Shown here in pieces: positions 53,912 through 58,712 of a stretch of 64,000 nucleotides of DNA. Position 1 is the stretch's first letter. Each line of letters starts with the position of its first letter. Below the pieces are notes generated by a model. It searched no databases. It saw only the letters and a list, made by a program, of their open reading frames with translations, and was not told the origin of the DNA. Position numbers and translations under genes: made by a program. Source of the DNA: Escherichia coli (GTDB taxonomy: Bacteria; Pseudomonadota; Gammaproteobacteria; Enterobacterales; Enterobacteriaceae); NCBI RefSeq assembly GCF_001677475.2, contig NZ_CP015229.1, one strand, 5' to 3'.

Positions 53912-54912
53912 ATGCTGTAACCGAAGGAAGAAAAGTTCTCCTCGAAATCGCCGATCTGAAAGTGCACTTTGAAATCAAAGATGGCAAGCAGTGGTTCTGG
54001 CAACCGCCGAAAACTCTCAAAGCCGTCGATGGTGTAACTCTTCGCCTGTATGAAGGGGAAACATTAGGTGTGGTAGGGGAATCGGGATGCGGTAAGTCCA
54101 CCTTTGCTCGCGCCATCATTGGCCTGGTTAAAGCGACCGACGGTCATGTTGCCTGGTTAGGCAAAGAGTTGCTGGGCATGAAGCCCGATGAATGGCGTGC
54201 CGTTCGCAGTGATATCCAGATGATTTTCCAGGATCCGTTGGCATCGCTAAACCCGCGTATGACCATCGGCGAGATCATCGCTGAACCACTGCATACTTAT
54301 CATCCGAAAATGTCACGCCTGCAAGTTCGCGAGCGCGTGAAGGCGATGATGCTGAAAGTCGGGTTATTGCCTAACCTGATTAACCGCTATCCGCATGAGT
54401 TCTCTGGTGGGCAGTGCCAGCGTATCGGGATTGCACGTGCACTTATTCTTGAACCGAAGCTGATTATCTGTGATGAGCCGGTGTCGGCGCTGGACGTGTC
54501 AATTCAGGCGCAGGTGGTCAACCTGCTCCAGCAATTGCAACGTGAGATGGGATTGTCATTAATTTTTATCGCTCATGACCTGGCCGTGGTAAAACACATT
54601 TCCGATCGTGTGTTGGTGATGTATCTCGGCCATGCGGTAGAACTGGGGACCTATGATGAGGTCTACCACAATCCCCTACATCCTTACACCAGGGCATTGA
54701 TGTCGGCAGTCCCCATACCTGATCCGGATCTGGAGAAGAACAAAACCATCCAGTTACTGGAAGGGGAATTACCGTCGCCGATCAACCCGCCTTCCGGTTG
54801 TGTTTTCCGTACCCGTTGCCCGATTGCCGGTCCGGAGTGCGCCAAAACACGTCCTGTTCTGGAGGGGAGTTTCAGACACGCCGTTTCTTGCCTGAAAGTC
54901 GATCCGCTTTAA
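53908..54912 (+). CDS. oppF: oligopeptide ABC transporter ATPase OppF
   Basis: 334 aa, Walker A GESGCGKST, signature FSGGQCQR; ATGA overlap with oppD. Confidence 0.95.
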   Translation: MNAVTEGRKVLLEIADLKVHFEIKDGKQWFWQPPKTLKAVDGVTLRLYEGETLGVVGESGCGKSTFARAIIGLVKATDGHVAWLGKELLGMKPDEWRAVRSDIQMIFQDPLASLNPRMTIGEIIAEPLHTYHPKMSRLQVRERVKAMMLKVGLLPNLINRYPHEFSGGQCQRIGIARALILEPKLIICDEPVSALDVSIQAQVVNLLQQLQREMGLSLIFIAHDLAVVKHISDRVLVMYLGHAVELGTYDEVYHNPLHPYTRALMSAVPIPDPDLEKNKTIQLLEGELPSPINPPSGCVFRTRCPIAGPECAKTRPVLEGSFRHAVSCLKVDPL

Positions 54913-54921
54913 AAACAATAA

Positions 54922-54946
54922 GGGCTGACAGTTGTCAGCCCTTTTT
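54922..54946. terminator. bidirectional rho-independent terminator between convergent oppF and yciU (GGGCTGACA-GT-TGTCAGCCC + T5)
   Basis: Perfect 9-bp stem 10 nt after oppF stop; U-rich on both strands. Confidence 0.85.
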
Positions 54947-54964
54947 CACGCCAAAAGCGATTAT

Positions 54965-56789
<1,825 letters not shown>

Positions 56790-56931
56790 AGATTAGAAAT
56801 CCTTTTGAAAGCGCATTGTTATGAGTTTACGCATATGGATTCATCTGGCAAATAAAAACGCGGGAAAAGCACTGGTCAGCGTCGGGGGCGGGGGTATAAT
56901 GACCATTCTGTTATTGCATAGAGTAGTTAAC

Positions 56932-57105
56932 ATGAAGCGGAGTAGAACGGAAGTGGGGCGCTGGCGCATGCAGCGTCAGGCTAGCCGACGTAAATCGCGT
57001 TGGCTTGAGGGGCAATCGCGCCGAAATATGCGTATCCACAGCATCAGGAAGTGCATTCTAAACAAACAGCGTAACTCGTTATTGTTTGCGATCTACAATA
57101 TCTAA
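56932..57105 (+). CDS. yciY: small highly basic protein YciY (57 aa)
   Basis: ORF 56821..57105; internal ATG gives MKRSRTEVGRWRMQRQASRRKSRWLEGQSRRNMRIHSIRK... Confidence 0.55.
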   Translation: MKRSRTEVGRWRMQRQASRRKSRWLEGQSRRNMRIHSIRKCILNKQRNSLLFAIYNI

Positions 57106-57159
57106 ATGTACTGGGCACCATTGCGGTGCCCAATAAGTTTACTCTTCCGTCTTTAAACT

Positions 57160-58413
57160 CTATTTTTGCGCCGATTCTTTACTGTCAGCTTTCGTTTCTT
57201 GTTCATCGTTATCGCTGAAAATACCATGACCGGAGTTCAACAACATTGAAACAAGCATATCATTATTAATCTCTTCACCATTTAAAACTCGCGCCAGAAT
57301 TTCGCTGCCAAACAGTTGCGGTGATAGAATGATATCCGGATGTACCATCTTAATCTTATTCAGGTTTTTGCTATCACTGACGGCGAGAACTGTTTTGACA
57401 TCACTGCTCATATCTTTTGCCGAGAGTACAACAAACGCGTTATCTGCATCGTTATCACTCAGCGCCAGAATGGCCCGGCATCGATCGATTCCCGCTTTCT
57501 TTAATACTGAACTGTCATTACTGTCACCGGGGATAACATCAGCATTATCGCCTAAGCGTTGCTCAAGTTGCTTGATATCATCTTCAGGCAAGTTGCTGAT
57601 AACCGTTACGTTTTGTCCGCGTTGATTCAGTTGTAGGATCGTATTGATGGCGAGAATCGAATGTCCGCAAACAATAAAATGATCTTTACGATGCATTGTA
57701 TGATTGTTTCCTTTTACAAGTTTGTTGAATCCCCCGCGGATAAGCGGACCAAAAATTGAGGTCATGGAGGTGGCAAAAACGGTAATGCCGGAAATAATGA
57801 CCGAAATAGTGAACAATCGTGCTGATTCAGAAACAGGGACAATATCGCCATATCCGACGGTTGACATGGTTTCTATCGAAAAATAGAACGCGGTCATCAA
57901 ACTTTCTATTCGCGGATTAAAACCTTCGCTTAAATAAAGCGCACCGTAGGTGGAGTAAAACAGTAACGTCGTGAAACTAATAAATGCAAAAATTGTCCCG
58001 GCTGCGGCGCTACTGTGGGAAAAGTCTTTGCGCAGTATCAGCAAAAACACCAGCGTAAAAATGCAAAATCCAATACTAAATTTCAGCCAGGGATAAAAAT
58101 GCAGGGTGTAAATTAGCGCTATCAACAACAAAATGATACTGATTGCCCATGCGAGTTTTGCCCGGAACAGTAAGCCAATGGAGTTCAGGACAAGAAAGAC
58201 GCCGAGCATAAATAGTGGGGCGTTTGCCAGCAAGGAGAGATCCAACTCTGAAAATGCTTTGATATGGAAAATATCAAGCAAATTGACCGACATACCATAG
58301 ATTGTTTTAAAAATAAGCAATCCATTTAAAAAGACGGCCAGCGCGAGAATGTCGTGCCGTAGGGTCACCCATAAATTTGTTGCTGTTTGTTTGAATGTAG
58401 CCCAGTGACTCAC
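57160..58413 (-). CDS. kch: voltage-gated K+ channel Kch
   Basis: ORF 57160..58431; GTG start gives 417 aa; six TM, selectivity filter TVGYGD, C-terminal RCK domain. Confidence 0.9.
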   Translation of the reverse strand: MSHWATFKQTATNLWVTLRHDILALAVFLNGLLIFKTIYGMSVNLLDIFHIKAFSELDLSLLANAPLFMLGVFLVLNSIGLLFRAKLAWAISIILLLIALIYTLHFYPWLKFSIGFCIFTLVFLLILRKDFSHSSAAAGTIFAFISFTTLLFYSTYGALYLSEGFNPRIESLMTAFYFSIETMSTVGYGDIVPVSESARLFTISVIISGITVFATSMTSIFGPLIRGGFNKLVKGNNHTMHRKDHFIVCGHSILAINTILQLNQRGQNVTVISNLPEDDIKQLEQRLGDNADVIPGDSNDSSVLKKAGIDRCRAILALSDNDADNAFVVLSAKDMSSDVKTVLAVSDSKNLNKIKMVHPDIILSPQLFGSEILARVLNGEEINNDMLVSMLLNSGHGIFSDNDEQETKADSKESAQK

Positions 58414-58712
58414 TGATACCTCTGTAACCACAATTTTGTTTAATTATCTTAGCGTGCACATTTTCTGAATATACATGCAGCGCGTGAATGTGTTAAACAA
58501 TAGTAGATGACTTTATCCGCAGTAATCAAAGGTTTTGAGCGAGCAACTATACCTCAGGAAAGGTCATTTTTCCTGAATATGCTCACATCATATAAAGAAA
58601 TACAGATAAAGTTATTATCTGCTTGTGGTGGTGAATGCACTGACCGGCTATAAGGAAAGGCCAAACAAGAACACGGTTGCAAAAACCGTGCCCTTAAATA
58701 TTGAATCTCTAT

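Follow-up and report, generated by a model that had tools for sequence, protein, structure and literature searches.

The locus between the cardiolipin synthase gene cls (clsA) and kch of Escherichia coli raises three questions: whether the short open reading frame found there is a gene, where its translation starts and what its product might do. We examined it in a stretch of 64,000 nucleotides from contig NZ_CP015229.1 (here, the window), in which cls occupies 55329-56789 and kch 57160-58431, both on the minus strand. A sequence-only reading had described a small, highly basic protein of 57 residues between the two genes, lying in frame within a 94-residue ORF that begins at 56821. Size, basicity, position and nesting were all borne out. 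That reading was also right that the small protein is real, but it did not recognize it as the annotated gene yciY. It had further called the start uncertain; the longer ORF does exist, but the start is now settled at ATG 56932.

The ORF at 56932-57105 on the plus strand is, with high confidence, the real and translated gene yciY with its start at 56932. It runs for 57 codons from ATG to TAA (stop at 57103-57105), and its product is MKRSRTEVGRWRMQRQASRRKSRWLEGQSRRNMRIHSIRKCILNKQRNSLLFAIYNI. The NCBIfam model NF033701 ("YciY family") gave the 57-residue peptide a score of 109.8 bits (cutoff, 30), and residues 1 to 55 aligned to model positions 1 to 55 of 56. The exact peptide sequence is UniRef entry YCIY_ECOLI, "Uncharacterized protein YciY," and we also take A5A614 to be YciY. 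RefSeq carries a yciY coding sequence at coordinates identical to those of the ORF (NZ_CP023820.1, WP_001309467.1; 3233-3406 of locus L001), and all yciY homologues in the protein database bear the precomputed Pfam label PF26518:YciY. Our Pfam scan of the peptide gave no match, and the copy searched presumably lacks the newer PF26518 model. Compared with the family as a whole (NF033701/PF26518/YCIY_ECOLI), the window protein agrees in length, in its conserved core EV(G/A/S)RWRM.RQ...RWLE.QSR and in its place beside cls, and we found no difference. The core residues M1, S4, E7, V8, R10, W11, M13, R15 and Q16, and likewise R23, W24, L25, E26, R30 and I35, are invariant across 46 aligned YciY members and are all present in the window protein, which shows every testable defining feature of the family. 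The family itself is classed as "hypoth_equivalog" and "uncharacterized."

The surrounding region has the E. coli gene order oppF-yciU-cls-yciY-kch-yciI-tonB, with yciU at 54965-55294 on the minus strand. A 601-nt stretch around yciY is present in about 5420 to 5422 of 5426 complete E. coli genomes, and "yciY: YciY family protein" is annotated beneath the match in 30 of 30 records among the matches listed. The segment 56700-57300 reached 99.7% identity at best, not 100%, among the 5426 complete RefSeq E. coli genomes, so in this stretch the window's strain matches none of those assemblies exactly; the yciY ORF of the window nevertheless agrees letter for letter with the K-12 sequence given in PMC4909307. 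Nothing contradicts the identification of the gene as yciY, and nothing is new in its existence, coordinates or translation; yciY is already known and annotated. As to the records themselves, 13 of the 5430 matching places in the E. coli genome search lie on records labeled plasmids. A 45-residue, N-terminally shortened YciY of E. coli TW09195 is named "chpB toxin of the ChpB-ChpS toxin-antitoxin system," which looks like a mislabel, and an entry "YciY family protein, partial [Listeria monocytogenes]" on a 252-nt contig looks like contamination.

The basic character of the peptide comes from 13 Arg and 4 Lys residues (17/57, or 29.8%), and the first 40 residues alone hold 15 of these (37.5%). 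There are two acidic residues, both Glu. The calculated pI is about 12, the calculated net charge at pH 7 about +14.6 and the calculated GRAVY -1.14. Among the 225 ORFs of 50 to 120 residues in the window, yciY ranks top for its Arg-plus-Lys fraction. Three of the 225 have a net charge per residue equal to or above that of yciY, and out-of-frame and antisense ORFs come nearly equal to it. Because spurious ORFs reach nearly the same charge density, composition alone is unconvincing as proof of a gene. We accept yciY as a real gene because of purifying selection on it and published data on its translation.

Selection on yciY and its transcription unit

Selection was assessed on the first 54 codons in nine Enterobacteriaceae genera. 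The mean pN was 0.118 versus a mean pS of 0.680, and dN/dS was about 0.04 to 0.1, with a median of 0.076 over unsaturated pairs; for E. coli versus Salmonella, dN was 0.062 and dS was 0.82. Variable columns at codon positions 1, 2 and 3 numbered 21, 16 and 47 of 54, respectively, and the yciY frame was the only one of the six that was free of stops in every genus. Judged by these substitutions, yciY is under strong purifying selection as a protein, a pattern that rules out an incidental ORF within a conserved RNA or promoter. Two antisense ORFs, at 56841-56969 and 56911-57039, were rejected: stops interrupt them in most taxa, and frame -1 owes its low pN/pS (0.31) to mirroring the yciY frame.

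The gene would be a stand-alone unit transcribed divergently from cls (clsA), with its own sigma-70 promoter, a 5' untranslated region of about 25 nt containing a weak Shine-Dalgarno sequence, 57 codons and its own terminator hairpin. The predicted promoter, at 56873-56900 on the plus strand, consists of a -35 element TGGTCA (56873-56878), a 16-nt spacer and a -10 element TATAAT (56895-56900), with 10 of 12 matches in a consensus scan. TATAAT(G) is kept at the same position in all nine aligned Enterobacteriaceae genera, and in Rouxiella, Morganella and a Pectobacteriaceae contig a TATAAT likewise precedes the ATG by about 50 to 55 nt. From this arrangement, we infer a transcription start at about 56907. 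The weak Shine-Dalgarno-like AGAG at 56920-56923 on the plus strand, whose GAG (56921-56923) lies 8 nt before the ATG, would act as the Shine-Dalgarno sequence; GAGT is conserved at this position in the aligned Enterobacteriaceae, with GAGC in Kluyvera and GAAT in Rouxiella.

At the other end of the unit, 7 nt past the yciY stop and between the convergent yciY and kch genes, there is an 8-bp GC-rich hairpin, TGGGCACC-ATTGC-GGTGCCCA, at 57112-57132. Together with its surroundings (a segment of 56 nt, 57095-57150), it folds at -17.7 kcal/mol (z = -3.9 versus shuffles). The hairpin GGGCACC...GGTGCCC follows yciY in 9/9 Enterobacteriaceae genera regardless of the downstream gene, and in Klebsiella both bases of the outer pair differ in a compensatory manner (AGGCACC...GGTGCCT). 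A T-run follows the stem in several genera; the window copy has no T-run, and a simple terminator scan missed the hairpin for that reason. Its conservation and fold suggest that the hairpin is probably a transcription terminator, one that possibly works in both directions.

A short transcript (about 230 nt) served by a promoter of its own and by a conserved terminator hairpin, and a predicted mRNA that folds somewhat better than shuffles (z = -2.9), would also suit an element that is conserved mainly as RNA, either a small RNA or a cis-regulatory transcript, with the ORF incidental or the RNA serving a dual function. However, the substitutions are of the protein type, with third positions free, a dN/dS of about 0.08 and a single open frame, and an Rfam scan of 56600-57400 found no RNA family in or beside yciY. 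Translation has moreover been shown experimentally (PMC4909307). A purely RNA function is refuted by the substitution pattern together with the shown translation, an additional base-pairing role is without support, and we consider it very improbable that the element acts mainly as RNA. A CRISPR-DR35 match at 57217-57252 (minus strand), inside kch, scored 23.3 bits, below the gathering score of 35 (E = 0.053); present in one copy and within a coding region, it is almost certainly a chance match.

The start codon of yciY

Twelve loci were compared, from E. coli, Salmonella, Citrobacter, Enterobacter, Klebsiella, Rouxiella, Cedecea, Cronobacter, Atlantibacter, Kluyvera, Morganella and the Pectobacteriaceae contig. 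ATG 56932 is conserved in 12/12 of these loci, which represent five Enterobacterales families. In a comparison of ten genera, the frame is open back to an ATG 37 codons upstream in E. coli and Klebsiella only; in the other eight, stops 12 to 111 nt upstream of the conserved ATG close it, the nearest stop being 12 nt away in Cedecea and 18 nt away in Rouxiella. Additionally, tetracycline ribosome profiling (TetRP) found a start at K-12 position 1306812, which is ATG 56932 and exactly the start of the 57-codon ORF, in a table that labels the gene "New protein(2014) yciY" (PMC4909307). A chromosomal yciY-Venus fusion, IVP3, was fluorescent in both LB and minimal medium and served as a positive control, so that the start was mapped and confirmed by a reporter in 2016 (PMC4909307). 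A5A614 was also among the proteins detected by LC-MS/MS of low-molecular-weight E. coli proteins (PMC2990009). Conservation of the ATG and start mapping by ribosome profiling were the two checks proposed with the sequence-only reading, and both came out in favor of the 57-residue protein. Three independent lines, namely, conservation, promoter geometry and experiment, establish that yciY starts at ATG 56932 and not at that of the 94-residue form.

It is exceedingly improbable that the real product is instead the 94-residue ORF from 56821 or a 68-residue form from ATG 56899, although E. coli and Klebsiella do have the longer frame open, several gene callers report forms of 94, 93 or 68 residues and the first codons of the long ORF (MSLRI) look conserved in these two genera. 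Apart from the stops in 8/10 genera and the TetRP start at the ATG of the 57-residue form (PMC4909307), the middle of the extension has no protein-level conservation, and NF033701 covers residues 38 to 92 alone of the 94-residue form. Both upstream ATGs also lie ahead of the predicted yciY transcription start. ATG 56821 is upstream of the yciY promoter, so the start of the long ORF precedes the site at which transcription would begin, and the in-frame ATG 56899 is the "ATG" of yciY's own TATAATG. The frame-closing stops and the TetRP start essentially exclude the 94- and 68-residue proteins.

The apparent conservation of MSLRI has an explanation in the opposite strand. The predicted cls promoter (56824-56851, minus strand; TTGCCA-16-TAAACT) has its -10 element, TAAACT, at 56829-56824, and the first codons of the long ORF, ATGAGTTTACGCAT, overlap that element. 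ATG 56821 adjoins the predicted -10 element, and the MSLRI codons would for that reason be conserved as DNA. Between 56790 and 56830, conservation in 10/10 aligned genera extends to a GAGT(T/G)TACGCA block and to the cls Shine-Dalgarno region (AAAATCCT, plus strand), and it is this conservation of cls-promoter DNA that makes the false N terminus "MSLRI..." look conserved. The upstream extension of the 94-residue ORF, 56821-56931 on the plus strand, is noncoding and constitutes the cls-yciY intergenic promoter region. The 94- and 68-residue gene calls in databases are thus artifacts of a frame that is open through the cls/yciY promoter region.

Predicted structure and a proposed polyanion target

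An HMMER scan with a 46-sequence YciY profile against 1.84 billion cluster representatives returned 39 proteins at E < 1e-3 in all. The named members come from many Enterobacteriaceae genera and from Rouxiella, Brenneria, Pectobacterium, Symbiopectobacterium, Morganella, Providencia and Erwinia. By the profile matches, the YciY family is specific to Enterobacterales.

With the 46-sequence alignment as input, AlphaFold2 predicted a single continuous helix over residues 5 to 56 (mean pLDDT, 93.6; pTM, 0.53), which may reflect a bound or idealized state rather than the free peptide. The conserved positions of the alignment are dominated by Arg, Trp and Gln, and R5, R10, W11, R12, R15, Q16, R19, R20, R23, W24, R30, R31, R34 and R39 are invariant or nearly so. 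The C-terminal 15 residues are variable, with a short hydrophobic patch, LLFA, kept among them (LLFAI at the tail of the window protein). No transmembrane segment was found in YciY. The hydrophobic moment of the whole helix (muH, 0.22) did not exceed that of shuffled sequences (mean, 0.17 ± 0.09; p = 0.27), and no clustering on one face was seen for the Arg and Lys residues (angular resultant, p = 0.21) or for the hydrophobic residues (p = 0.92). An arginine stripe picked out by eye (R5, R12, R19, R23, R30 and R34) was rejected because the Arg/Lys resultant is not above that of the shuffles.

YciY has no homologues of known function. The best result of a profile search against the PDB was mitochondrial uS14, at a nonsignificant E value of 0.25 (14.4 bits). 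When YciY was compared by hhalign with a hand-entered sequence of E. coli uS14, the probability was 0.2% and nothing aligned; the uS14 match was rejected as due to chance or composition. A Foldseek search of the PDB with the AlphaFold model returned 0 hits, as would be anticipated from a lone helix, and PHROGs and PADLOC scans gave no matches. The NCBIfam scan matched YciY as the sole family and no ribosomal-protein family, and no DNA-binding domain or motif appeared in the NCBIfam, Pfam and PDB profile searches. Overall, searches of NCBIfam, Pfam and the PDB, together with Foldseek, revealed no significant similarity of YciY to ribosomal or other nucleic acid-binding proteins. The sequence-only reading had suggested, from composition, that the protein binds nucleic acid or the ribosome, and these searches neither support nor refute that suggestion. 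In the searchable literature, we found no data on function, phenotype, interaction, localization or ribosome association for yciY.

From its composition and predicted shape, and from general knowledge of such proteins, we tentatively propose that YciY binds a polyanion in the form of a structured RNA, most likely rRNA or the ribosome, and we hold this with somewhat less than even confidence. The protein would be cytoplasmic and soluble, a single alpha-helix of about 52 residues with a charge of about +14.6 and arginines on all sides. Such a helix could not be stable alone, nor would it lie flat on a membrane as an amphipathic helix. With the charge spread all around it, a polyanion would be needed to neutralize the protein. 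Contact with RNA would be electrostatic, with stacking of Arg and Trp, as in arginine-rich-motif helices and small basic ribosomal proteins; the invariant residues of YciY are mostly Arg and Trp (R10, W11, R15, R23, W24 and R30 among them).

Two groups of known proteins invite comparison. Ribosome-associated proteins of E. coli that are small and very basic, such as bL34, bL36 and Sra/RpsV, share with YciY a size of about 40 to 60 residues, an extreme pI and a cytoplasmic location, and they pack against rRNA phosphates. However, YciY has no sequence or profile similarity to them and is encoded outside the ribosomal-protein operons, and it is confined to a single order instead of being universal. 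The arginine-rich motifs of lambda N and of HIV Rev and Tat are short Arg-rich helices with interspersed Trp and Gln, as in YciY, and their binding to structured RNA is electrostatic. These motifs and YciY also have in common that the charge goes all round the helix and is not confined to one face; YciY has 13 Arg among its 57 residues and a predicted helix over residues 5 to 56. In contrast to those motifs, which are about 17 to 20 residues long and sit inside larger proteins, YciY stands free as a complete protein, and its predicted helix is about 52 residues long. YciY has no homology to lambda N, Rev or Tat, and the likeness is by analogy only.

MgtS/YneM, YncL and CydH/YnhF, for example, came out of the same small-ORF searches in E. 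coli and resemble yciY in being small genes annotated late, listed as "New protein(2014)" with TetRP peaks (PMC4909307). Their products, however, are single hydrophobic transmembrane helices, whereas YciY is strongly hydrophilic (GRAVY, -1.14). With no transmembrane segment and no significant hydrophobic moment, YciY does not belong to the class of small inner-membrane or amphipathic-helix proteins.

The cls-yciY locus and other readings of function

In 12/12 loci, the window included, yciY is the divergent neighbor of cls, and yciU lies downstream of cls in 12/12 as well. The cls-yciY spacing is 142 to 146 nt within Enterobacteriaceae and 208 to 253 nt outside that family. The gene after yciY is variable: only E. 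coli has kch there, five genera have yciI immediately next and the rest have other genes.

Beyond the yciY terminator lies a slot that is a hot spot for insertions. In Cedecea, it holds Mu-like transposase and helix-turn-helix genes (locus L007, 3345-6180); in Enterobacter, it holds a LysE exporter gene and a chloramphenicol-acetyltransferase-family gene (locus L004, 3292-5265); and in the Pectobacteriaceae contig, it holds a chemoreceptor gene. For E. coli TBE6 (NZ_CP154401.1), the match to our query is interrupted at the yciY stop (query position 406; about 57105) and resumes elsewhere in the record, which suggests that DNA has been inserted at the terminator, between yciY and kch. No kch intervenes between yciY and yciI in Salmonella, Citrobacter, Klebsiella, Atlantibacter or Kluyvera, and these five genera carry a gene of the Ion_trans/Ion_trans_2 channel family, about 278 residues long, between oppF and yciU. 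The window has no Ion_trans gene at that place, where the oppF-yciU gap (54912-54965) is just 52 nt. Thus, within this one locus, the potassium-channel-like genes differ, and so do the slots in which they lie. RefSeq names the yciU product "HI1450 family dsDNA-mimic protein." YciU has a pI of 4.05, a net charge of -23 and 30 Asp or Glu residues among its 109 amino acids, so that acidic YciU and basic YciY (+14.6) form a charge-complementary pair flanking cardiolipin synthase.

Such a locus admits a broader reading, which we regard as possible but doubtful, in which YciY is an Enterobacterales-only single-helix factor whose role has been missed. It might be associated with the ribosome or RNA, or YciU, ClsA and YciY might make up a charge-matched locus linking the anionic lipid of the membrane to nucleoid or RNA organization. 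The gene was annotated after the classic knockout collections were built.

The constancy of the cls neighbor across five families, while the downstream gene varies among kch, yciI, a chemoreceptor gene, a Mu-like prophage and others, also suits a role at the membrane. YciY would bind the head groups of cardiolipin and phosphatidylglycerol, or ClsA itself, at the inner leaflet and modulate cardiolipin synthesis or domains, with the shared divergent promoter region coupling yciY expression to cls. The spacing held within Enterobacteriaceae is consistent with this, as are the short hydrophobic C-terminal tail, LLFAI, and the richness of YciY in Arg and Trp, which is typical of peptides that bind anionic membranes. 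However, the predicted helix has no hydrophobic face (p = 0.27 and p = 0.92), its mean hydrophobicity is strongly negative and a transmembrane segment is absent. Furthermore, outside Enterobacteriaceae the spacing is not kept, the oppF-yciU-cls block shows synteny of its own, so that adjacency may be inherited gene order and not a sign of functional coupling, and clsA is far more widespread than yciY. We therefore consider binding to cardiolipin or ClsA unlikely.

Quite unlikely, too, is that YciY is a DNA-binding or nucleoid-associated protein, possibly a partner of the acidic dsDNA mimic YciU. The extreme positive charge and the long predicted helix of YciY would fit such a role, and the syntenic, charge-complementary YciU is there in every locus compared. 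Against it, the searches detected no DNA-binding domain or motif in YciY, the link to YciU is one of proximity and charge, and the DUF440/HI1450 family occurs in gammaproteobacteria that have no yciY.

Of the roles weighed here, binding to structured RNA, most likely rRNA or the ribosome, is the one we tentatively favor for YciY. As a finding, yciY itself adds little, being in every current E. coli annotation. Its order-wide conservation under strong purifying selection nevertheless indicates that YciY does something, and there would be a modest upside if YciY were shown to bind ribosomes, RNA or anionic lipid. A 57-residue helix with a charge of +14.6, always found beside cardiolipin synthase, is a cheap and well-defined target for binding work.
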